Positions 51,657-63,973 of a stretch of 64,000 nucleotides of DNA are shown here, piece after piece. Position numbers and translations under genes: made by a program. Where the stretch lies: contig CAKPTA010000002.1 in the NCBI GenBank assembly GCA_934190785.1, forward strand, positions 146,269 through 210,268. Reading direction: 5' to 3'. The number at the start of each line of letters is the position of its first letter. The stretch's first letter is position 1. The stretch comes from an uncultured Bacilli bacterium. Lineage in GTDB: Bacteria > Bacillota_I > Bacilli_A > RF39 > UBA660. The notes beneath the pieces were generated by a model that was not told where the DNA came from, did not search any database, and worked only from the letters and a program-made list of their open reading frames with translations.

Positions 51657-52787
51657 ATGAAAAAATATATAAAGAGAAGTATTAAATTTTTTTGTTTGTC
51701 ACTTATAGTTTGTCCTTTATCTATTCATGCTATAACATTAAAAGAATATGAAGATCAAGTTGCAAAGTATACAGCTGAATTACAAGAAAAACAAAATCAA
51801 ATTGCCAAGAATGAAGAAGAGGCTGCGCAAATAAAAGAAAAAATAAATAGTATCAAGAAACAAATTAATGATGCTGGTTCACAAATTGAATCATTAGAAG
51901 ATGAAATTGTGAAGAGTAATGAACAAATAAAGCAGAAAAAAGAAGAAATAAAAAAAATAGTTAACTATTATCAAATATCTAGTAGTGGAAATTCATATAT
52001 AGAATATATCTTTGGTGCAGAGAGTATTACAGATATGATATATCGTTTAGCTATTTCTGAACAACTTACATCATATAATGATAGAACAATAAAAGAATTA
52101 AATCAATTGATTGAAAATAATGAAAAAAAGAAAGAAGATTTAAGTAAGAAACAAATAGAACTCGGTAATTTAAATGCATCATTGTATGAAGAACAAAGCA
52201 AAATAGAATCTGATACAGGTCAAATAGAGGGAACATTACCTTCTACAACAGGGCAGATTGCTTTTTATCAAAAGAGAGTTGATTATTATAAATCAAAAGG
52301 TTGTAAATCAAATGATGTAATTGGTGTTACATGTGATGTACCAAGTAAAACAACAATTATAGGTGCAAATGGATTTAGATTTCCAGTAGATGGTGGTAGA
52401 ATAACGCAAGCTTACGGTAATGCAGGACATAAAGGTGTTGATATTGGAAAAAGTTGTGGTGCACCAATATATGCTGTTGCAGCAGGAAAAGTATACTATG
52501 TTGGTAGTGACCTAGATAAATATGGTGCTAAGATGGTATTAATTGCTCATAATGTAAATGGAAAGTTGGTATTTTCACAATATGCCCATTTAAGTTCATA
52601 TAATGTATCTGTAAATGAAGATGTTGATATTAATACTATTATTGGATATATGGGTAATACTGGATTATCATTTGGATGTCATTTACATTTAGAAATGTCA
52701 CAAAATATTGGTTGGGGATATAATGGAAGCTATGTTAATTATGTAAAAAATATCATAAGTCCATTTACATATGTACCACGACCATAA
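51657..52787 (+). CDS. M23 family peptidoglycan metalloendopeptidase with N-terminal signal peptide and coiled-coil region
   Basis: Coiled-coil (EEAAQIKEKINSIKKQINDAG...). LytM/M23 motifs HKGVDIG and HLHLE. RBS AGAGGTG lies before the ATG at 51657. Terminator at 52805-52833. Confidence 0.8.
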   Translation: MKKYIKRSIKFFCLSLIVCPLSIHAITLKEYEDQVAKYTAELQEKQNQIAKNEEEAAQIKEKINSIKKQINDAGSQIESLEDEIVKSNEQIKQKKEEIKKIVNYYQISSSGNSYIEYIFGAESITDMIYRLAISEQLTSYNDRTIKELNQLIENNEKKKEDLSKKQIELGNLNASLYEEQSKIESDTGQIEGTLPSTTGQIAFYQKRVDYYKSKGCKSNDVIGVTCDVPSKTTIIGANGFRFPVDGGRITQAYGNAGHKGVDIGKSCGAPIYAVAAGKVYYVGSDLDKYGAKMVLIAHNVNGKLVFSQYAHLSSYNVSVNEDVDINTIIGYMGNTGLSFGCHLHLEMSQNIGWGYNGSYVNYVKNIISPFTYVPRP

Positions 52788-52919
52788 TATAGTTAGTAAT
52801 GAACATGTTTCATTACTTTTTTTATTTAAAATATATTATTAATTAACAATATATTAGATTTATGATAATTAATAACACATTTACGTCTTTTTCATAAAAT
52901 ATTTTTAGGAGGAATATGT

Positions 52920-53192
52920 ATGAATAACTATAAAATTGTTATTGATGCTGGTCATGGTGGAAGTGATCCAGGAGCCAGTGGAAATGGAATAATAGAAAAA
53001 GATTTAACTTTAAAAATATCACAATATATGTATGATAGATTTAGAGAATTAGGAATTCCTGTTACAATGACAAGAACAACAGATGAAACTGTTGAGCCAA
53101 CAGAAAGAGTCAACCGTATTTTAAATGCTTATGGTAATAGTAGTGATGTAATTGTCATTAGTAATCACATAAATGCAGGAGGAGAGACTTAG
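52920..53192 (+). pseudogene. truncated N-acetylmuramoyl-L-alanine amidase (Amidase_3) N-terminal fragment
   Basis: MNNYKIVIDAGHGGSDPGASGNG...ISNHINAGGET then stop at 90 aa. Amidase_3 catalytic domains run about 170-180 aa. No continuation appears in any downstream frame. The AT-rich island begins immediately after. Confidence 0.6.
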
Positions 53193-53472
53193 CTCTTACA
53201 TGGATTAAATTTATAAGGGTATTAAGATGGCTGTATTTAAATGATTGAGTTAGATAGTATAAATTATCTAGAACGATATTAAATGATGTTAAAATAGTGT
53301 TTATTTGAGAGATAAATGCTATTTTTTGCTTTTTAATTAAAAAACATTAAATTGTCCTGAAAATACTGAAAAAAATGTCAAAATATGATAATATATACTT
53401 GTGAGGATAAGCAGTATTTAATCTTTTTAAGATGGATACTGCTTATTTTTTGAAATAAAGGAAGTGCCAGTA

Positions 53473-56400
53473 ATGAATTATAAAGAAAGAGGATATCTAT
53501 TTCAAGATATATTTTCAACATATATAATTATTAAATATGTTAAACAAATATTATGTGGACAAAAGGTACAGGCAGAAGTGGTTTTAGATAAAAAGAATAG
53601 TAAAGATGATAAATTTGATGACTTAAAGATAATTAATAATGATGATATATTAGAAGTTCAATTAAAATATAAAGAAATAAAAGAAGAATTAGAATTATCC
53701 GATTTTTCAAATTATAGTGGTGACTTCAATCTCTATCAGTTTATTCGAAGTTATAAAAATGGAAAAAATAAACAGGTTTGTTTACTAATAAGCTTAAATA
53801 AAATTAAATTGTCGAACGAACTAATTAAAGTATTAATTTTAGAAGATGATAATAAATTTTTTTCAAATTCACACAGATATAAATTTAAAAAAACAAAACA
53901 GTTAATAAACCTTCTTTATAAAAAAAGATTATCTGCTAAAGAAAAGCCTAAAATAGATTATTCAGATTTGACAAAAAATGATATTGAAATTTTTTTGGAT
54001 AATTTTGTAATAGAAATTACTAATAAGTCTATTGTTAATAATAGTATAAAAGTAGAGGTATTAGACGAGATTAGTGATGACATTGAAAAAATATCAAAAA
54101 TACCCAAGCAAGTTCTATATAATGATATGATTGAGACTATAAGAGAATATAGAGCAGAAGATGAATATAGAAAAATTAGTATATCTGAAATAACTAAAAA
54201 ATGGATTGAAAGAATAAAATTGATGAATTATACAATTCCAGTTAATAATGAATTAAATGTTGATTATGATTGCTTTATATCTAGAAGAAATGATGTAAAA
54301 GCTATTTTAGAAAAATTTAATAATACAAATCTAATCCATGTTATTGGGCAACCAGGAGTAGGAAAAAGTTGGTTTTCTAAAGAATTAACAGATGAGTTAT
54401 GTAAGAAGAATATAAAAAATAGTACATATTACTTTTATTTTAATTATGAAGATGTTGATAAGGAAAAGAGATTAAATGAGTATAATTTTATTACTACTTT
54501 TAATTATAATTTACAAAAATTTCATGGTTATAATATAAATATTTTTAATATGAATTTTGAAAAATTAGTACTTGGCGATGATGGTGAAGAGCATTACATT
54601 ATTTTTGATGGTCTTGACCATATTATTAGAGAAAAAAATTCAAATAGTATTAATATAGGTAATTTGATTGAAAAAATTGTAGAATTTTCAAAGAACAATA
54701 AAAATGTAAAAGTTCTAATTTTATCACAGCCATTAGAAGGAATTAAAATTGAAAATATATATGAATTAAAAAATTTAAATGAGTATCAATCAAATAAACT
54801 AATAGAGTTATATTCTAGAACATTAGATTTTCCTTTGGAAAAATTAATTGATAAAAGATTTTATTACAATAGTTGTGGGAATCCATTATTATTAAAATAT
54901 ATGGTAACAGACTATATTTTAAACGGCAATTTAGTTGATTACAAAATTACCGATTTAAATGATTATTACAAAAATATTTTTGATGGCAAACAATTTGTTA
55001 TTTATATGTATTTTGCAATTTTAAGTTTTCCTATATCACCAAAAGAATTAGAAGAGATTTCTTCTATATCTTTAGAAGAAATAATAAAAGAATTGAAATG
55101 TATTAGAAATGTATTATTAATAAATGAAAAAAATGAATATACGATTTTCCATGAAAGTTTAAGAAGATACATTTTATCATTAAAACAACTAAATAAAGAT
55201 AAATTGATAATGGATATAATTAATTGGTTTAATACTAAAGATTTATATTTTGAATCTAAAAAATTTAATTATTATCCATCTTTTGTATTAGAAAATAAAA
55301 AATATGAGTTATTTGATGAGAAATTTAATTATCAAAAAATAAAAATGGCAATTATTCAAAATGCATATTCAAATAAAGAAGTCCATCTTTTTATTAGAAA
55401 TTTATATATTATAAGTCAACATAAGTCAGATTTTAAAATGCTGTATTACTTAGAATATTTTTATGATGCTTATTATACTTTTTCATATGACTTTGATGTA
55501 AATATATTTGAGAACTACATTTATATGCTCTATTACTCTGGTGAATTTGATTTAATTAGAAAATTGGTTTATACAAAGAATATATCAGAATTTTCTAATG
55601 TTAATCAGCAGTGGGAATATATGAGAAAAATACTTGTTTTTCTATTAAAAAATAAATTTGAATTAAATTATAAAGAAATAATTAATAAATATTTTAATCA
55701 TGATAAAAGCAATAAAGTAATAAGGATAAATGACTTATTAATATCTGATGATTATGATAATATTAGATTAATATATGAATACTTAAAATATAATAAAATA
55801 TCTGATTTAAAGTTGACAGAAAATAATTTAGATATTAGTTCAGATTTATATGTATTATTGAATGCATTATTAAAAAATGAGAAAAGTCTTTTTATAGAAA
55901 CTTTTTATAAAAAGGATATTTTTCTATTAAAAAATAAAAATAAAGATTTATCAAATTTATTATTAAAATTATGTGAAAAGAAGTATATTTCTTCTTTAAA
56001 TAATTTATTTTTGCTAATTAATTATATATTTAATAACAATGAAAAAAAAATAAACAAATTGTTTTCTAATTGGGATCAAACATTTGAAAATGTTCCTTGT
56101 GTTTATAAATTTATTTGTATTTTTATAAAGTTGCTCTTGAATGATAATACTACAGAAACAGAAATTGCTGATTTTTTTAATCAATATAATTTTGAAACAC
56201 TAAACTTTGAAGGATATTTAAGCAATTATAATAATAATGATATAAATTTTATTGGTAAACTTGTTGTACTAAGCAGTAAGAAGAATTTTGTTATTCAATG
56301 CTTTATGAAATTTAAAGAAAGGATTTCAAAAGAAGCTGCAAAGCATTATCATGACGGAATTATATCCCTGTTAGCATCTATATATAGTCAAATTATAGAG

Positions 56401-58335
56401 AATGTCAAATATAATAATATTATATTAAATAAAGATACTTTAAATGAAATATTGATTAGGAATAATTATCAACAAAGTAATATAACAGAATTTGAAAATA
56501 ATATCATTAATTATACTTTATCAATAATTTCCGGAGAATTTAATGATATATATTATAATAATATAATTAAATATATGTTTAGTTACGGAAGCTATAGAGA
56601 TATACAAATATGGGAATTAGAAGATATACTTTCAAGATTAATTGGTTCAAGTAAAATTGATTTAAACAAATTTATACAATTAGTAACAATTGCCTATAAT
56701 GCAATAGACAGAATGGATAGAGCAAAGGATGTTTGGCATGTACCTAATGAACTAATAAAAATGTATTCTGACAAAATATCTCCTATAGAGGCAATAAATG
56801 TTTTCTTTAGTTTTTTAGAAACCTTTGACTATGATATAAGAGATAAAGATGATTTATTTTCACATTTATATGAAAATCTAAGCAATAATGAAAAGAATAA
56901 TAAGATAAATTTTATATATAATTATTGGCGATTCATGAATAAAAATATTACTTATCAATTTGATTCTAATAATACCGAACTAAAACAATGCATTAAAAAT
57001 TCTACTAAAGCACAGTTTAATTTTCTAAAATACAATATTTTGGAGTCATTAAAATTGAATGATATAGAATTGAATTATAATATACTAAAAGAAAAGTTTA
57101 ACAAGAAAAAATTGATATTAAATTATACATATCATCCACTTAAAAATTATTTGAAAAATGATAATCCCTATACTAATTCTATTAAATTTAATTCTTTTGC
57201 GGAATTCATTGAAAAAACAAATAATAGTTATTTTGATTGTAGAACTATTAATTTTGATAGTTTTATAAAAAATATTAAAGAATTAAATGATTCACAAGAT
57301 GTATTTAATTTATTTATAAATACAAAAAATTCTTCATACTTAAATTATATTTATGAAATATTTGAAAAAAACAATCTTGATTACAATACAATAAACGAAG
57401 ATATAATAGTAGAAATTTTAGTTGGAATTTACTATAGAAGCAATGGATATGTTTCTAACATGTCATATGATGAAATATTTGAAAAAGCCTTGCAAATTTC
57501 TCCAACAAAAGCAAAAGAGTCACTTAAAAGATATGTAATAAATGATAATAATATCGATTTAGGTAGAAAATCAGGAAAAATATTTAAATACCTGCTTAAT
57601 GATAATGACATTGATGAAATCTATAATTATGTTATTGAAATATATTTTTCACGATTACCAAATTATATAGAAATTACTAGGTATTGGAATTTAAATAAAT
57701 TTGATAATAATGATATTCTTTTAAATTATTTTTTAATAAAAATAATGAATTCAGGATTAAAACATAACCTATCTACAACTGAAGAAATGATTTTTTTAAA
57801 ACTGTTTGAGGTAAAAAAATTTTCAAATAATAAGATAGTTTATATGAAAAACATGGAAGGAGACTCATTATTTTATATTATTAATTTTTTGAAAATGTAC
57901 AGTAGGGTATTACGAATTAACTATGACTCTTTTTTGAATTATAAAAATATTAATAAATTTAATTATATTAAATTTCAAATAAATAATTCTAAAACAGAGA
58001 TTGTTGAATCAGAACGAAGTTTAGTAAATGATGAGTTAGATACAAAATTAGTAAGAAATTATAGAGGGTTAATAGCTATAGAATCTGACTTGGTATATTG
58101 GTATGAAGCAAATATGTATCAAGATTTTGGTGACGATTTGTTAGATAGAAATATAAATTATAAAATATTTCATATGCATAAAGTAAATGTTTTAAAATAT
58201 TTAAAAAACAGATTTTTATGTAATTTAAAATTAAAGATTTATTGGAGGAAGATTAATAAAATTATTAGAAAATCTTATTATGTTTTCCCTTCTTCATCTG
58301 TCATTTATATATATAATGAAAGAGACAATATATGA
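53473..58335 (+). CDS. very large (about 1,620 aa) STAND/NACHT-like P-loop NTPase; candidate antiviral STAND (Avs-like) sensor-effector protein
   Basis: RBS AAAGGAAG and ATG at 53473; the track's GTG at 53464 is less likely. Walker A VIGQPGVGKSW at about aa 292. Walker B HYIIFDGLDH is the STAND-type hhhhDGLD. Downstream TIFHESLRRYI resembles the NACHT FxHxSxQEYL motif. The N-terminal roughly 250 aa contain a D...ExQxK-like pattern (FDDLKIINNDDILEVQLKYK), a possible PD-(D/E)xK-like nuclease. The C-terminal roughly 1,000 aa are N/K/Y/I-rich, helical and repeat-like. No signal peptide. Very low GC. Confidence 0.7.
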   Translation: MNYKERGYLFQDIFSTYIIIKYVKQILCGQKVQAEVVLDKKNSKDDKFDDLKIINNDDILEVQLKYKEIKEELELSDFSNYSGDFNLYQFIRSYKNGKNKQVCLLISLNKIKLSNELIKVLILEDDNKFFSNSHRYKFKKTKQLINLLYKKRLSAKEKPKIDYSDLTKNDIEIFLDNFVIEITNKSIVNNSIKVEVLDEISDDIEKISKIPKQVLYNDMIETIREYRAEDEYRKISISEITKKWIERIKLMNYTIPVNNELNVDYDCFISRRNDVKAILEKFNNTNLIHVIGQPGVGKSWFSKELTDELCKKNIKNSTYYFYFNYEDVDKEKRLNEYNFITTFNYNLQKFHGYNINIFNMNFEKLVLGDDGEEHYIIFDGLDHIIREKNSNSINIGNLIEKIVEFSKNNKNVKVLILSQPLEGIKIENIYELKNLNEYQSNKLIELYSRTLDFPLEKLIDKRFYYNSCGNPLLLKYMVTDYILNGNLVDYKITDLNDYYKNIFDGKQFVIYMYFAILSFPISPKELEEISSISLEEIIKELKCIRNVLLINEKNEYTIFHESLRRYILSLKQLNKDKLIMDIINWFNTKDLYFESKKFNYYPSFVLENKKYELFDEKFNYQKIKMAIIQNAYSNKEVHLFIRNLYIISQHKSDFKMLYYLEYFYDAYYTFSYDFDVNIFENYIYMLYYSGEFDLIRKLVYTKNISEFSNVNQQWEYMRKILVFLLKNKFELNYKEIINKYFNHDKSNKVIRINDLLISDDYDNIRLIYEYLKYNKISDLKLTENNLDISSDLYVLLNALLKNEKSLFIETFYKKDIFLLKNKNKDLSNLLLKLCEKKYISSLNNLFLLINYIFNNNEKKINKLFSNWDQTFENVPCVYKFICIFIKLLLNDNTTETEIADFFNQYNFETLNFEGYLSNYNNNDINFIGKLVVLSSKKNFVIQCFMKFKERISKEAAKHYHDGIISLLASIYSQIIENVKYNNIILNKDTLNEILIRNNYQQSNITEFENNIINYTLSIISGEFNDIYYNNIIKYMFSYGSYRDIQIWELEDILSRLIGSSKIDLNKFIQLVTIAYNAIDRMDRAKDVWHVPNELIKMYSDKISPIEAINVFFSFLETFDYDIRDKDDLFSHLYENLSNNEKNNKINFIYNYWRFMNKNITYQFDSNNTELKQCIKNSTKAQFNFLKYNILESLKLNDIELNYNILKEKFNKKKLILNYTYHPLKNYLKNDNPYTNSIKFNSFAEFIEKTNNSYFDCRTINFDSFIKNIKELNDSQDVFNLFINTKNSSYLNYIYEIFEKNNLDYNTINEDIIVEILVGIYYRSNGYVSNMSYDEIFEKALQISPTKAKESLKRYVINDNNIDLGRKSGKIFKYLLNDNDIDEIYNYVIEIYFSRLPNYIEITRYWNLNKFDNNDILLNYFLIKIMNSGLKHNLSTTEEMIFLKLFEVKKFSNNKIVYMKNMEGDSLFYIINFLKMYSRVLRINYDSFLNYKNINKFNYIKFQINNSKTEIVESERSLVNDELDTKLVRNYRGLIAIESDLVYWYEANMYQDFGDDLLDRNINYKIFHMHKVNVLKYLKNRFLCNLKLKIYWRKINKIIRKSYYVFPSSSVIYIYNERDNI

Positions 58336-58366
58336 TATAATTATATATAGTTAGGAGGTTTTAATT

Positions 58367-59197
58367 ATGACTGAAAAAGAATTAGATTCAAGTGTTAACG
58401 AATATGAAGAAAAATATAAATCTAATAATTATGTAAAACAATTGAAGTGGGATATGGCTATTGGACTTCAAGAAGTAGATAATTTAAAGCCTTCTAAATA
58501 TTTAGAAAAATTATTAAAGGAAGAAGTAGAAGGTAATTTAACAATAGAAGAAGTAGAAAAAGAATTAAGAGAATATTATATTGAAAAAGAAAGTAAAAAT
58601 GAAGTAAATCATAATGAATTAGAATGTGATTTTGTATCTACTAGAATAGTTGAATTATTAAATAAAGATAATTTCGATTTATCAGTTAATTATTTAAAAT
58701 ACGTTCATAAATTTTTATTTCAAGATGTTTATGAATTTGTTGGTGAATTTAGAAAAATAGATTTTTCTAAACAGGAAAAGATACTTAACAATGATTCAGT
58801 AGTATATGGAGATTGTACTACTTTAAATCAATCACTAGAATACGATATATCGAAAGAATTAGAAAAAAACTATAAAGAAATGAATATAGTTGAAGTTATT
58901 AATAACATAACTAAATTTTCTTCTAGTATATGGCAAGTGCATCCTTTTAGAGAAGGAAATACTAGAACTACAGCCTTATTTATTGAAAAGTATTTAATTA
59001 GTTTAGGTTATAACTTAGATAATAGTTTATTTAAAGATAAATCGGTTTATTTTAGAAATGCTTTAGTAAGAAGTAATTATTTTAATAATTATTTGAATAT
59101 AAAAGAAGATAGTAGTTATTTATTTAAATTTTATGAAAATTTATTATTAGGTAAGAACAATAACCTACATTCAAAGGATTTAATTGTTCAAGAATAA
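58367..59197 (+). CDS. Fic/Doc (Fido) family protein with non-canonical active-site motif
   Basis: 276 aa. HPFREGNTRTTALFIEKYL matches HPFx(D/E)GNGRxxR except the second Gly is Thr and the final Arg is Ala. Starts 32 nt after the NTPase stop, with RBS AGGAGG, so likely co-transcribed. Terminator at 59209-59236. Confidence 0.7.
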   Translation: MTEKELDSSVNEYEEKYKSNNYVKQLKWDMAIGLQEVDNLKPSKYLEKLLKEEVEGNLTIEEVEKELREYYIEKESKNEVNHNELECDFVSTRIVELLNKDNFDLSVNYLKYVHKFLFQDVYEFVGEFRKIDFSKQEKILNNDSVVYGDCTTLNQSLEYDISKELEKNYKEMNIVEVINNITKFSSSIWQVHPFREGNTRTTALFIEKYLISLGYNLDNSLFKDKSVYFRNALVRSNYFNNYLNIKEDSSYLFKFYENLLLGKNNNLHSKDLIVQE

Positions 59198-59208
59198 TTG
59201 TTTGATAA

Positions 59209-59236
59209 AAAGTAATTAAACTATTACTTTTTTTAG
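59209..59236 (+). terminator. rho-independent terminator of the NTPase-Fic operon
   Basis: Perfect stem AAAGTAAT / ATTACTTT, loop TAAACT, then T7. Confidence 0.6.
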
Positions 59237-59287
59237 CAATTTTGATATATTGGTTATGCAAGGAAAAAATGGTAATACATTTTTGCA

Positions 59288-59326
59288 AGGGCACTATCTA
59301 GCGGTAGAGCCCTATTTTTTATTTTT
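59288..59326 (+). terminator. second hairpin terminator upstream of hsdM
   Basis: GC-containing stem GGGCACTATC / GGTAGAGCCC (one mismatch, one G-U pair) followed by TATTTTTTATTTTT. Confidence 0.45.
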
Positions 59327-59463
59327 GATTATGTAATAAGAGAATGTATTTTCTCTTTTTTTTTTTATAATTTTTTAGTTCAAATCCAAAGTTTACCAAA
59401 TTTCATGATATAATTAATATGATGGATGTTTATAATCTTATATAAATATAGGAGAGGGAGATT

Positions 59464-60963
59464 ATGGAAGAAAAAGATTTAAAAAAATTAGAAGATAAAT
59501 TATGGGCAGCTGCCGACAAAATGAGAGGTGCTGTTTCTGTATCAGATTATAAATTTATAGTACTAGGGTTAATATTCTTAAAATATATTTCTGATTCTTT
59601 TGAAGAAAAATATAATGAACTTGTAGATGAAGGTGCTGGATTAGAAGAAGAAAGAGATTGTTATACAGCAGAAAATATATTCTATGTTCCAAAAAATGCT
59701 AGATGGGAATATTTAGTAGAACATTCAAAGGATTCTAATATTGGTGAAATTATAGATGATGCTTTAACATTAATAGAAAAAGAAAATACATCATTGAAGA
59801 ATGTTTTACCAAAAGATTACAACTCTCCAACAATGAGAAATGTCAATTTAGGTGAACTACTAGATTTATTTACCAATATTAAAGTTGGAACTAAAGAAGC
59901 AATTCAAAAAGATATTTTAGGAAGAATATATGAATATTTTTTAGGTCAATTTGCCAAAAATGAATTACAAAAAGGTGGAGAATTTTATACACCAGCTTGC
60001 TTAGTTAGAACTATGGTTGAATGTATTGAACCATTTAAAGGTAAAGTATATGATCCAGCTTGTGGTTCTGGTGGAATGTTTATTCAATCAATGAAGTTTG
60101 TAGAAGAAAATCAAGGTAATATATATAATATTGGAATTTATGGACAAGAGAAAAATCCTACCACATGGCGACTTGCAAAAATGAACTTAGCTATAAGGTC
60201 TATGTATGGTGATTTAGGAAAATATGCGGCTGATACTTTTACTGAAGATTTACATAAAGATTTAAAAGCTGATTTTATACTTGCCAATCCACCATTTAAT
60301 CTTGAGTGGGATAGAGATAAAGTCGAAAATGATCCAAGATGGAGATATGGTTTAGCACCTAAAAACAATGCCAATTTTGCTTGGTTACAACACATGATAT
60401 CTAAGTTATCACAGAATGGTAAAATGGCTTGTATTTTAGCAAATGGTTCATTATCAGCAGGTGGTCAAGAGGGCGAAATAAGAAAAAAACTAATTGAAAA
60501 TGATTTAGTAGATTGTATCTTATCAATGCCTACTAACTTATTCTATACAGTTACCGTTCCATGTTCTATATGGATAATTAATAGAAATAAGAAACAAAAA
60601 GGTAAAACATTATTTATTAATGCAAATAATTTGGGTTCAATGGTAACTAGAAGATTAAGAGAGTTATCAGAAACAGATATTAAAAAAATTGCAGATACAT
60701 ATCATAGATATCAAAATGATGATAATTATGAAAATGTTAAAGGATTTTGTTATTCAGCAACTACAGAAGAAATAAGTGCCAATGATAATGTATTGACACC
60801 TGGTAGATATGTTGGAGTTGAAGAAAATCAATGTGATGATGTTCCGTTTGAAGAGAAAATGAAGAATATTACTTCAGAATTATCAAAGCAATTTGAAGAA
60901 TCACATAGATTAGAGGAAGAAATTAGAAAAAATATGAAAGCCATTGGTTTTGAGTTAGAATAA
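59464..60963 (+). CDS. hsdM: type I restriction-modification system DNA methyltransferase subunit HsdM (N6-adenine)
   Basis: 499 aa. N-terminal HsdM_N (LWAAADKMRG). SAM motif DPACGSGGMF. Catalytic NPPF (ILANPPFNLEW). An extended -10 TGATATAAT lies at 59406-14. Confidence 0.9.
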   Translation: MEEKDLKKLEDKLWAAADKMRGAVSVSDYKFIVLGLIFLKYISDSFEEKYNELVDEGAGLEEERDCYTAENIFYVPKNARWEYLVEHSKDSNIGEIIDDALTLIEKENTSLKNVLPKDYNSPTMRNVNLGELLDLFTNIKVGTKEAIQKDILGRIYEYFLGQFAKNELQKGGEFYTPACLVRTMVECIEPFKGKVYDPACGSGGMFIQSMKFVEENQGNIYNIGIYGQEKNPTTWRLAKMNLAIRSMYGDLGKYAADTFTEDLHKDLKADFILANPPFNLEWDRDKVENDPRWRYGLAPKNNANFAWLQHMISKLSQNGKMACILANGSLSAGGQEGEIRKKLIENDLVDCILSMPTNLFYTVTVPCSIWIINRNKKQKGKTLFINANNLGSMVTRRLRELSETDIKKIADTYHRYQNDDNYENVKGFCYSATTEEISANDNVLTPGRYVGVEENQCDDVPFEEKMKNITSELSKQFEESHRLEEEIRKNMKAIGFELE

Positions 60964-61007
60964 TCGTTTGTAGTATAATAATTACCGTCTTAAAGGGGGA
61001 AATTATT

Positions 61008-62006
61008 ATGAAAACGGAAGTAATATCTAATATTACAAAAGACATGGAAGATAGTCTTACTGATTATCAACTAAATAAGCTTAAAGAGAGCTTAATAATA
61101 AACTTCGAAGGAGTAGAGTTTATTATAAAAACTGATGAAGTAAAACATCAGGAAGAATTAGATGAAAATAAGAATATGATTGATTCATTTATTTCATCTA
61201 AACAAGTTGAAGGTTGTTCAGAACGAACAATTAAATACTATAAAGAAATTATTGAAAAATTTGTTAATAGTTTTGATAAAAGTATTAAACAAATATCAAC
61301 AAATGAAATAAGAAATTATTTATCTAATTATAAAGATAATAGTTCTTGTGGATCTACAACTATAGATAATATAAGAAGGGTATTATCATCATTCTTCTCT
61401 TGGTTAGAAGATGAGGATTATATTATAAAGAGTCCAGTTAGACGAATACATAAAATAAAAACAGCAGTGGTTGTTAAAGATGTTTTAACTGATGAAAATT
61501 TAGAAAGGTTAAGAGATGAATGTGAAAACGTAAGAGATTTATCACTAATAGAATTATTAATTTCAACAGGAATGAGAGTTGGAGAACTTGTTAATTTAAA
61601 TATTAATAGTCTTAATTTTGAAGATCGTTCTTGTATTGTATTAGGTAAAGGTAATAAAGAAAGAGAAGTATATTTTGATGCAAAAACAAAATTGCATTTA
61701 AAAAAATATATTTCAAAAAGAAATGATTCAAACGATGCCTTATTTGTATCAATGAGAGAACCACATCAGAAATTATCTATTTCTGGTATTGAATTAATAA
61801 TTAGAACATTAGGAATAAATTCAAATATAAATAAAGTTCATCCACACAAATTTAGAAGAACATTAGCAACAATGGCAATAGATAAAGGTATGCCAGTTGA
61901 ACAAGTTCAAAAGTTGCTAGGTCATGTAAAAATAGAAACTACAATGAACTATGCTTTAGTTAATCAAAGTAATGTTAAAATATCACATAGAAGATATATA
62001 GCATAG
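61008..62006 (+). CDS. tyrosine site-specific recombinase (phage integrase / XerC-XerD family)
   Basis: 332 aa. N-terminal SAM-like core-binding domain. C-terminal catalytic region with R (GMRVGEL), HPHKFRRT and LGHVKIETTMNYA (H-x-x-R...Y). Confidence 0.8.
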   Translation: MKTEVISNITKDMEDSLTDYQLNKLKESLIINFEGVEFIIKTDEVKHQEELDENKNMIDSFISSKQVEGCSERTIKYYKEIIEKFVNSFDKSIKQISTNEIRNYLSNYKDNSSCGSTTIDNIRRVLSSFFSWLEDEDYIIKSPVRRIHKIKTAVVVKDVLTDENLERLRDECENVRDLSLIELLISTGMRVGELVNLNINSLNFEDRSCIVLGKGNKEREVYFDAKTKLHLKKYISKRNDSNDALFVSMREPHQKLSISGIELIIRTLGINSNINKVHPHKFRRTLATMAIDKGMPVEQVQKLLGHVKIETTMNYALVNQSNVKISHRRYIA

Positions 62007-62033
62007 AATTATTATTTGTAAAAGGAGAGAAAT

Positions 62034-63176
62034 ATGGAGTTAAAAGAATTATGCAAAATTAAGCATGGTTTTGCTTTTAAAGGAAAGGATATAATAAAAA
62101 ATTATTCTACTAAATATGTTTTAGTTACTCCTGGTAATTTTAATATAGGTGGTGGTTTTAAGAAAGATAAATGTAAATATTTTTCTAAAAATGGTAACAT
62201 TCCAAAGGATTATATTTTAAGAGAAAATGATTTGATAGTTACCATGACCGATTTGAGTGTAAAGTCTGACACATTAGGCTACTCTGCACTTATACCAAAA
62301 GATAATAATATATATCTTCATAATCAACGAATTGGATTAGTTCATGATATAGATGAATCTAAAGTATTAAAAGATTATTTATACTGGTTTATGAGAACTA
62401 AAAAATATCAACAAGAGGTTGTAGCTTCTCAATCAGGTACTGCAATTCATCATACATCTCCAGATCGAATATTAAATATAGAAATCGATTTGCCATCAAT
62501 AGATAATCAGAGAAAAATAGTTAAAATATTGTCTGATGTAGAACATAAAATTAAAAATAATAATGATACAAATAATAATTTGTACGAGGTATCAAAACAA
62601 TTGTTATTAAAATATTTAGATGAAAATAAGAGTTTTGATGAAATTAATATAAGTAAATTTCTAAATATATTTACTGGAAAGAAGAATGCTAACGAAACAT
62701 CTCCAACTGGTAAATATAAATTCTTCTCTTGTGCACCAGAAAGTTTATTATCTGATACATATTTATGTGATAGTGCTGCAATAATAGTTGCTGGTAATGG
62801 TGCATATACAGGAAGAACAAGATTTTATGATGGTAAGTTTGAACTTTATCAAAGAACTTATGGATTAACATTGAAAGATGGCTTTGAAAAGAATAATATA
62901 TATGGTTTATATGTATTTATGAAAACTATTTTTGAACCAGATAAGATGGGTGGAACTCATGGATCAGCTATACCATATATTGTGTTATCAGATTTGACAG
63001 ATTATAAATTAAAATATAACAAAGTTGAATTTGATAGATTTTCAAATTTAGTAAGTGGTAATATAAAAATGATTCAAGAAAATGAAAAATCTAATGAAAA
63101 ATTATCAGAACTAAGAGATACATTATTACCAAAATTAATGAATGGTGAAATAGATTTAGATAATATAGAGATTTAA
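62034..63176 (+). CDS. hsdS: type I restriction-modification specificity subunit HsdS (two target-recognition domains)
   Basis: 380 aa. Central conserved spacer (LPSIDNQRKIVKILSDVEHKI) and C-terminal conserved helix (LRDTLLPKLMNGEIDL) flank two variable TRDs. Confidence 0.85.
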   Translation: MELKELCKIKHGFAFKGKDIIKNYSTKYVLVTPGNFNIGGGFKKDKCKYFSKNGNIPKDYILRENDLIVTMTDLSVKSDTLGYSALIPKDNNIYLHNQRIGLVHDIDESKVLKDYLYWFMRTKKYQQEVVASQSGTAIHHTSPDRILNIEIDLPSIDNQRKIVKILSDVEHKIKNNNDTNNNLYEVSKQLLLKYLDENKSFDEINISKFLNIFTGKKNANETSPTGKYKFFSCAPESLLSDTYLCDSAAIIVAGNGAYTGRTRFYDGKFELYQRTYGLTLKDGFEKNNIYGLYVFMKTIFEPDKMGGTHGSAIPYIVLSDLTDYKLKYNKVEFDRFSNLVSGNIKMIQENEKSNEKLSELRDTLLPKLMNGEIDLDNIEI

Positions 63177-63211
63177 TCATACAAATTGTGATTTGTATAA
63201 TGGAGGAATAC

Positions 63212-63973
63212 ATGAAAAAGGATTTATTTGATTATATAATAGAACCAACGGATAAAGAGTATAGAAAAGAAAATATAATAGACGATATATCTTTTATCCC
63301 AAAACTTATCATCCCTAAAAATGCTTATTTTATGAATCATCATGATTACTTAATAAATGATGCAATTGTAAATTATAATAATGAAACAGTAGTTGCAAAA
63401 ATGTTTTATGCAAACATGATAAAATATGAGAAATATTATGAAAAAACTAAAGATGAAAACTACGATTTTTGGGCAAGAAAGAATGGAGAACAGTTAATTA
63501 AGGAATTATATTCTATTTATGATAAGTCGGTTCATATTGTTAATTATTTGTTTGATTTGAAAGTACTTCCTGATTTAGGATTTAAAAAAAATATTAGAGA
63601 ACAATTAAAATCTAAAGATAAAGATTTCTATAAAGTGTTTAACAAAATATTTAGTAAACTTTATGGGGAATCAAACAATGTCGTTCGTGATGATATAACT
63701 CACAATTTTAGTAATTTATTTTTTAGATATGTTCCTAAGTACGATGATAGTAAGGAAACTGGTTGGTATACTGAAGAGTCTTTATCCTTTAAAGAATACA
63801 AAAATATAATTGATGAAATCTGTTCGTTATTGGTAGAAAATAAAAATATTATTATAAATAAAATTGCTAGTATTTATCCTAAAAAGGGAACAGAAGAATA
63901 CGAAGAACAATGTAAGAAGAATATTGATAGGGCAAAAGAAATGTATGATAAATTAAAAGCTGGAAATCATTAA
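63212..63973 (+). CDS. hypothetical protein with HEPN-like Rx4HN motif (candidate Abi/RNase partner of the RM locus)
   Basis: 254 aa. RBS GGAGGA lies before the ATG at 63212. The C-terminal half contains VVRDDITHNFSN (R-x4-H-N). No other recognisable motif. Confidence 0.4.
   Translation: MKKDLFDYIIEPTDKEYRKENIIDDISFIPKLIIPKNAYFMNHHDYLINDAIVNYNNETVVAKMFYANMIKYEKYYEKTKDENYDFWARKNGEQLIKELYSIYDKSVHIVNYLFDLKVLPDLGFKKNIREQLKSKDKDFYKVFNKIFSKLYGESNNVVRDDITHNFSNLFFRYVPKYDDSKETGWYTEESLSFKEYKNIIDEICSLLVENKNIIINKIASIYPKKGTEEYEEQCKKNIDRAKEMYDKLKAGNH

Follow-up and report, generated by a model that had tools for sequence, protein, structure and literature searches.

The protein considered here is a 276-aa Fic protein encoded in a 64,000-nucleotide stretch of contig CAKPTA010000002.1 from an uncultured Bacilli bacterium (the whole stretch is called the window below), and its closest described relatives are Fic proteins with a GNTR active-site motif. 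Five Fic/Doc motif groups were distinguished in 2015, and the signature Hxxx[D/E]GNTRxx[not R] defines one of them; the group clusters within Fic clade F3 and not with Doc, and a 'small number' of proteins in that clade was then said to carry the signature (Khater & Mohanty 2015, PMC4454073). The motif Arg that is missing from this group normally binds the ATP gamma-phosphate; the group was also credited with 'a modified inhibitory helix', and its function or specificity was suggested to differ, with a role other than AMPylation as a possibility (PMC4454073). There is precedent for toxicity in such a protein. Fic2 of Campylobacter fetus, which has the motif HPFREGNTRTIA (G191T and R195A), acts as a toxin in E. 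coli, where it makes the cells filamentous, and the catalytic-His mutant H184A loses this toxicity. Fic2 lowers 70S ribosomes and polysomes with an excess of free subunits, a defect in subunit joining or ribosome biogenesis, and the class II Fic protein Fic1, encoded upstream, neutralises it (Sprenger et al. 2017, PMC5651007). AMPylation by the GNTR class was doubted in both papers, which leave the conclusion on donor and substrate open (PMC4454073, PMC5651007), and we found no biochemical characterisation of the GNTR/Fic2 clade in the literature. The family to which the window gene belongs is therefore already known, bioinformatically since 2015 and through a toxic member since 2017.

We favor the possibility that the window protein is an intact and catalytically competent toxin of the GNTR Fic2 type, one that would be auto-regulated, self-contained and able to bind its donor in a non-canonical way, and we regard this reading as reasonably probable.

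Other described systems resemble the window protein in part. The nearest solved Fic cores belong to class I FicTA systems (VbhT/VbhA, 3SHG and 3ZC7; EcFicT/FicA; Bep/BiaA). Class I systems have a separate antitoxin with an S-x-x-x-E-G motif and a toxin with GNGR..R, whereas the window protein has a fused module with L-x-x-x-D-(G/N) and an active site with GNTR..A; the resemblance does not imply class I targets, GyrB or ParE for example. Doc of phage P1 is a kinase toxin with the motif HxFx(D/N)(A/G)NKR, without a flap hairpin and with Phd as its partner. The likeness to Doc is that the second motif Gly is replaced (by Lys in Doc and by Thr in the window protein) and that the last Arg is absent; unlike Doc, the window protein has Thr and not Lys, a flap-like hairpin and no conserved partner, and it does not fall within the Doc type. 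Kinase activity could be suggested for it by analogy only. Doc and Fic2 do share an area of action, translation, through EF-Tu in the case of Doc and a ribosome phenotype in the case of Fic2.

Among PADLOC entries the window protein strongly matches the profile of PDC-S72, a single-gene defence candidate (259.7 bits, E=1.1e-77, profile positions 6-270 of 377), and the window gene, too, is a unit of one gene whose neighbourhoods are variable and rich in defence genes. The last ~100 positions of the profile are absent from the window protein and correspond to the winged helix-turn-helix (wHTH) tail of ~30% of members. Weaker matches were obtained to two other Fic-type entries, PDC-S04 and SoFic (E=1.5e-5), SoFic being a canonical class II AMPylase. 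We found neither a publication on PDC-S72 nor a validation of it in the literature.

The Fic domain and its GNTR motif

The window protein is a genuine Fic domain with a Fic fold, far beyond chance. Pfam PF02661 matches aa 105-210 with 45.2 bits (cut-off 24, E=1.8e-11), NCBIfam adds matches to VbhT, Fic and NmFic that are all sub-threshold, and the closest solved sequences are the Bartonella Bep Fic domains and VbhT. An AlphaFold (AF2) model built from an 88-sequence alignment reached a mean pLDDT of 94.3 and a pTM of 0.90, and Foldseek matched it to solved Fic structures (Bep1, VbhT, FicT and FICD) with a probability of 1.00. The model contains a flap-like hairpin with short strands at 136-137 and 143-144; the near-invariant residues of this region are K135, E137, L140, V145 and Y147, and from knowledge of the Fic family we take it to be the target-docking flap.

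The homology to Fic2 is full-length and not confined to the motif, because the BLASTP alignment of the two proteins (44% identity, E=1e-60) spans aa 18-264 of the window protein, matched to aa 9-256 of Fic2. We located the fic1-fic2 pair, whose genes overlap by 1 bp, on the C. fetus subsp. venerealis plasmid NZ_CP075539.1 (locus L081). Fic2 from this locus (CDF65253.1; WP_002850956.1) has H184, T191, A195 and a KEKE tail, and its Fic1 has S31 and E35. The G to T and R to A replacements are at identical positions in the two motifs (HPFREGNTRTIA in Fic2, HPFREGNTRTTA in the window protein), the two proteins share one architecture, their catalytic His being residue 184 and 192, respectively, and both have an N-terminal GL.VD.LKPS module. 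This module is more degenerate in Fic2, where W28, Q35 and the NIEG stretch are missing. Fic2 also has the upstream class II antitoxin Fic1 and the C-terminal KEKE tail, whereas the window gene has neither. As a separate observation on the C. fetus locus, a nucleotidyltransferase/HepT-like (MNT-HEPN) toxin-antitoxin pair (2402..3137 of L081) lies directly 5' of fic1-fic2 and a TnpB/IS200-605 element lies 3' of it, the whole being a cluster of addiction/defence modules.

Relative to the canonical HxFx(D/E)GNGRxxR, the window motif has Thr for Gly at position 8 and Ala for Arg at position 12, and it is therefore not a complete AMPylase motif; His192, Phe194, Glu196, Gly197, Asn198 and Arg200 are kept. 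This is exactly the Khater & Mohanty signature. The replacements are shared by the whole family. Within the best 150 diverged representatives (~35-80% identity), 140 show a motif, and in 139 of these 140 position 8 is Thr; position 12 is likewise not Arg in 139 of the 140, and is Ala in 124. The identical 12-mer is found in 102 of the 120 closest relatives. The family signature can be written Hx(F/Y)x(E/D)GNTR(T/A/S)x(A/S/G), with T199 conserved in 128/129 sequences and A203 in 116/129, and with His192, Phe194, Glu196, Gly197, Asn198, Thr199 and Arg200 invariant or nearly so. Conservation extends beyond the motif, to W28, G33, L34, D38, L40, S43, E86, D88, H114 and F118, and further to G126, R129, K135, E137, Y147, W189 and R230. 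In the C-terminal helix, aa 228-238, R230 is near-invariant and R235 is conserved, which makes these two residues candidate replacements for the lost motif Arg. Since the motif and the residues outside it are invariant or near-invariant, the active site appears to be under purifying selection and not decaying, and on the evidence of these alignments the GNTR motif is a family signature, neither a local oddity nor a product of decay.

What the earlier note on this DNA had observed in the sequence is borne out by the ORF and the motif, namely a Fic domain with the two replacements and six retained canonical residues. Its statement that the replaced positions bind nucleotide phosphates is supported, and its suggestion of an altered donor or substrate specificity agrees with PMC4454073 and PMC5651007, both of which are open on the point. 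The suggestion that the protein might be catalytically impaired does not fit an active site under strong purifying selection, nor the His-dependent toxicity of the homologue Fic2. The note had also raised the prospect that the motif variant is common among ordinary AMPylating Fic proteins. Common it is, in thousands of proteins, but these form a clade of their own with no demonstrated AMPylase.

The 'small number' of GNTR proteins given in PMC4454073 contrasts with the thousands in present databases. A word-indexed search returned at least 7974 clusters at 90% identity (8000 candidates scored). When 1.84 billion cluster representatives were scanned exhaustively with HMMER, 3163 of them, counted as 50%-identity clusters, matched at E<=1e-3, and 299 did so at E<=1e-30. 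Relatives were found in at least 598 genomes in a scan that took one genome per species, and they occur in gut metagenome-assembled genomes of Bacilli/'Tenericutes', in Clostridia, in Bacteroidales and in Alphaproteobacteria. Plasmid-borne homologues are present in Campylobacter, Paraclostridium, Treponema and Bacteroides. A phage collection yielded one homologue only, on an unannotated 7.5-kb faecal contig, and so gave no sign that the family is phage-borne.

Family members also vary in ways that the window protein does not display. A C-terminal winged-helix domain (Fic-like_C PF21247, HTH_24 or MarR_2) is present in ~30% of representatives and is lacking from the window protein. At least three wHTH types are found on GNTR-Fic proteins (e.g. 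P0133-P0156), which suggests repeated gain of a nucleic-acid-binding or autoregulatory tail. One relative, P0122, is chimeric: its residues 1-196 are ~82% identical to the window protein, and after the shared HPFREGN the sequence is that of a canonical GNGRSTR Fic protein, which bears a class III-like SYAIEG motif at its C-terminus. Either natural recombination joined the two parts at the motif, or the chimera arose in assembly.

The N-terminal VbhA-like module

The canonical (S/T)xxxE(G/N) string is found nowhere in the window Fic protein, and to this extent the earlier note was right to see no inhibitory helix. It did not see that residues ~20-76, judged by sequence and profile comparison, are a VbhA-antitoxin-like module fused to the toxin domain, with L34-Q-E-V-D38-N39 as a modified inhibitory motif. 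In the model the module forms helices at 20-38, 44-54 and 60-76, and its family consensus, W..AIGLQ.VDGL.PS.YL......NIEG..T..E......YY, is highly conserved. Within the motif, 123/129 sequences have L34 and 125/129 have D38, and G or N stands at position 39 in 113/129. VbhA PF18495 was the most recurrent Pfam match to the N-terminal segments of the family (15 of 36 segments, best E=5.4e-5; the window protein itself, E=0.036). In an hhalign comparison the N-terminal profile aligned with VbhA (its sequence confirmed against chain B of PDB 3SHG/3ZC7) over 48 columns without a gap and with the three helices in register (E=0.0013); the score of 19.3 compares with 8.7+/-1.8 (maximum 17.1) for 300 shuffled VbhA sequences and is ~6 SD above them. 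Another residue, E55 in 'VEG' (consensus NIEG), was considered as the inhibitory Glu and rejected as the leading candidate, as its conservation is below 70% and it aligns to V-V-G of VbhA and not to E24.

Engel et al. are said to have reported in 2012 that the inhibitory Glu pairs with the last motif Arg in canonical Fic proteins. In the GNTR family the inhibitory Glu (to Asp) and the motif Arg with which it would normally form a salt bridge (to Ala) are changed together, along with the G to T replacement. The window protein differs from class I FicTA systems in having no separate small (S/T)xxxE(G/N) antitoxin, the module being fused in cis and reading LQEVDN. In comparison with class II proteins, the topology is compatible, and the Ser and Glu of the in-chain (S/T)xxxE(G/N) are absent. 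Foldseek aligned ~250 columns of the model to class II Fic proteins (FICD, 4RGL, 3CUC) versus ~190 to class I toxin chains, and these alignments are compatible with the possibility that the N-terminal module lies where the in-chain inhibitory region lies. Taken as a whole, the protein seems to descend from a class I FicTA pair of the VbhA-VbhT type that became one chain. In class I FicTA operons the antitoxin gene comes first; the order within the fusion, antitoxin and then toxin, matches this operon order. Fusion of such a pair would be the simplest evolutionary reading.

Gene neighbourhood and other features of the window

We retrieved 80 related loci in order to compare neighbourhoods. In the window the gene upstream of fic encodes a 1623-aa STAND NTPase, and not an overlapping class II Fic as in the fic1-fic2 pair. 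A STAND NTPase gene adjoins the Fic gene in only one of the 80 loci (L006), where its product is 90% identical to that of the window; L006 is therefore a near-identical relative. In ~8 of the 80 loci an HsdM homologue lies no more than 10 kb away. The 127 immediate flanking genes carry 131 Pfam families, none of which is present in more than four genes, and the defence-type genes among them include TIR/ThsB, ResIII, RhuM, PLD, DNA methyltransferases, the YobI ATPase and UvrD-like helicases. Nucleotide homology to close relatives is limited to ~58327-59220, starting 0-40 nt before the Fic ATG and ending 0-25 nt after the stop codon (~135 nt in two loci). No conserved small or tandem partner was found among flanking ORFs of at least 70 aa, shorter ORFs not having been surveyed systematically, and no adjacent Fic paralogue was seen in the family loci examined. 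Because the neighbours are variable, the homology is limited to the gene and terminator-like hairpins follow it, we take the Fic gene alone to be the conserved functional unit. It is independent of the STAND NTPase and of the type I restriction-modification (R-M) genes, and what is common to them is a variable defence island. The suggestion in the earlier note that the Fic protein acts as a regulator or adaptor of the upstream NTPase is not supported by these findings. The features discussed here are collected in Table 1. The second of the two hairpins stands between the Fic gene and hsdM; a consensus terminator scan called neither hairpin.

Table 1. Positions in the window of the Fic gene, its signals and domains, and the neighbouring features
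Feature	Position	Strand	Details
Fragment of N-acetylmuramoyl-L-alanine-amidase-like ORF	52920..53192	+	90-aa 5' fragment; ends TAG, then non-coding DNA
Non-coding element just 5' of STAND gene	53340..53484	+	~115 nt; promoter-like TTGTCC/TATGATAAT
Long hairpin in the same element	53403..53450		-20.9 kcal/mol, z=-6.9; then T-run and ribosome-binding site
STAND NTPase gene	53464..58335	+	1623 aa; NPHP3_N/NACHT P-loop aa 275-421
Shine-Dalgarno AGGAGG	58353..58358	+	8 nt 5' of ATG; from sequence
Fic2-type (GNTR) Fic CDS, short form without C-terminal wHTH	58367..59197	+	276 aa; start ATG, stop TAA (window ORF list)
VbhA-antitoxin-like three-helix N-terminal module	58424..58594	+	aa 20-76; Pfam, hhalign, model
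Modified inhibitory motif L34-Q-E-V-D38-N39	58466..58483	+	aligned to VbhA S20-x-x-x-E24-G25
Fic core domain, Pfam PF02661	58679..58996	+	aa 105-210
Flap region	58769..58807	+	aa 135-147; model secondary structure and conservation
Active-site motif HPFREGNTRTTA	58940..58975	+	aa 192-203
Conserved C-terminal helix YFRNALVRSNY	59048..59080	+	aa 228-238; conservation
First terminator-like hairpin and T-run, 3' of stop	59207..59232	+	-9.5 kcal/mol, z=-2.75 (folding)
Second terminator-like hairpin (AGGGC...GCCCT) and T-run	59288..59325	+	-13.8 kcal/mol, z=-2.81 (folding)
Type I R-M genes	59464..63176	+	
hsdM	59464..60963	+	
Tyrosine recombinase gene	61008..62006	+	
hsdS	62034..63176	+	
Unannotated ORF	63188..63973		261 aa

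The STAND NTPase is probably an independent, Avs-like defence gene. Neither Pfam nor PADLOC gave a match in its N-terminal 270 aa or its C-terminal ~1200 aa, and the idea of a PD-(D/E)xK nuclease at the N-terminus was dropped as it had no Pfam or PADLOC support. GC content falls to 17-21% across the gene. The promoter-like element just 5' of it, with its long hairpin, has copies that are 80-83% identical 5' of unrelated genes in three of the related loci (L005, L022 and L032), and it may be a portable promoter or a leader (attenuator-like) cassette; an Rfam scan of 52700-59600 gave no match. Further upstream, amidase fragments of the same length as that in the window are found 0.7-3 kb 5' of the Fic gene in L001, L003, L007, L014, L017, L034 and L079, and ~9 kb 5' of it in L006. 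The fragment seems to mark a recurring left edge of the variable island in this Bacilli lineage, or a hot spot for insertion. On the other side of the Fic gene, the placement of a tyrosine recombinase gene between hsdM and hsdS is an arrangement typical of phase-variable hsdS shufflons; hsdR was not found in the window 3' of the R-M genes, where there is an unannotated ORF.

Proposed function and competing explanations

In the scenario that we favor, the toxin would be held quiet by its own N-terminal module until a trigger, such as phage infection or another stress, released it. His192 would then take a phosphate-linked group from a nucleotide-type donor and attach it to a hydroxyl on the target, which would be related to translation, and the modification would arrest growth in the manner of a toxin-antitoxin or abortive-infection system. 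In the anion hole, Thr would occupy the position that Lys has in Doc, and the gamma-phosphate Arg is absent. For these two reasons the donor is probably bound unlike ATP in AMPylases, and with a different donor pose the transferred group may not be AMP. A more specific proposal, which we put forward tentatively, is that GNTR-Fic proteins catalyse a non-AMPylation reaction (e.g. phosphorylation, or transfer of another nucleotide-derived group) and that the remodelled fused module (Glu replaced by Asp, motif Arg lost) is a built-in sensor of the trigger.

Several points weigh against this scenario. With regard to the module, the similarity to VbhA is statistically real but weak: (i) all of the VbhA PF18495 matches are below the gathering score; (ii) the hhalign probability for the VbhA match is 18%; and (iii) a search of the N-terminal profile against PDB sequences did not retrieve VbhA and gave chance-level matches only, although VbhA as query also finds no other solved class I antitoxins. 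Furthermore, over-expression of Fic2, which has the same N-terminal module, is toxic, and Fic2 requires Fic1 in trans; auto-inhibition by the module is for this reason unproven. Non-AMP chemistry would follow only by analogy with Doc and AnkX and from the roles of the two replaced residues. As to a function in defence, the defence-island location is descriptive and without a background control, and PDC-S72 has the status of a candidate and lacks experimental validation as a defence system.

The window protein could be an ordinary AMPylase that uses ATP and transfers AMP, with R230, R235 and K135 standing in for the lost Arg. The residues of in-line transfer (His, the metal-binding Glu, Asn and the first Arg) are all kept, the nearest solved relatives VbhT, Bep1 and FicT are AMPylases, and the C-terminal helix does carry conserved Arg residues. 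We nevertheless think this rather unlikely, as the G to T and R to A replacements are co-conserved across the clade with the Glu to Asp change in the module, which looks more like a remodelled nucleotide site than neutral drift, and as both published studies of the class doubted AMPylation. It is less likely still, and in our view improbable, that the protein is a hydrolase or eraser in which Asp38 and the altered motif serve to remove a modification or to hydrolyse a nucleotide, in the manner of FICD, EfFic or Fic-1/AntF. According to a passage in PMC6408439, the inhibitory Glu supports de-AMPylation in some Fic proteins, and the invariant acidic D38 aligns with this Glu; moreover, the Fic-1/AntF deAMPylase (8wt0) is among the structural matches. 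However, the His-dependent toxicity of Fic2 in a heterologous host is easier to understand as a gained modification, and no cognate writer is conserved nearby.

The remaining alternatives are poorly supported. Loss of two canonical motif residues could be taken to mean a catalytically dead pseudo-enzyme or scaffold, but His, Glu, Asn and Arg, together with the replacement Thr, are invariant down to 35% identity, and the H184A mutant of Fic2 loses toxicity, so that we consider a dead enzyme very improbable. The idea that the Fic protein serves the upstream STAND NTPase as accessory, regulator or effector, so that the two genes make up one system, is barely credible to us and is largely refuted by the gene neighbourhood. 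The genes do lie on the same strand, 31 nt apart and with no terminator-like site between them, and the pair is seen again in L006. That locus, though, is a near-identical relative, and the NTPase is not beside the Fic gene in the other 79 loci; homology begins no more than 40 nt before the Fic ATG; and Fic2 is active alone in E. coli.

With regard to what follows from our preferred reading of a self-contained Fic2-type toxin, the annotation of the window is corrected in that the Fic gene and the STAND NTPase gene are not one system. The value of the finding lies in the family, which gut bacteria carry in great abundance and which PADLOC lists among its defence candidates; the locus itself is ordinary. 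The comparison also provides three handles for experiments: a triad of co-conserved residues (Thr199, Ala203, Asp38), the interpretation of the protein as a VbhA-VbhT-like pair fused into one chain, and its independence from its neighbours. If the more specific and tentative proposal of non-AMPylation chemistry with a built-in sensor is true, GNTR-Fic proteins would represent a one-protein toxin-antitoxin or abortive-infection switch that is abundant in gut Bacilli, Clostridia and Bacteroidales.

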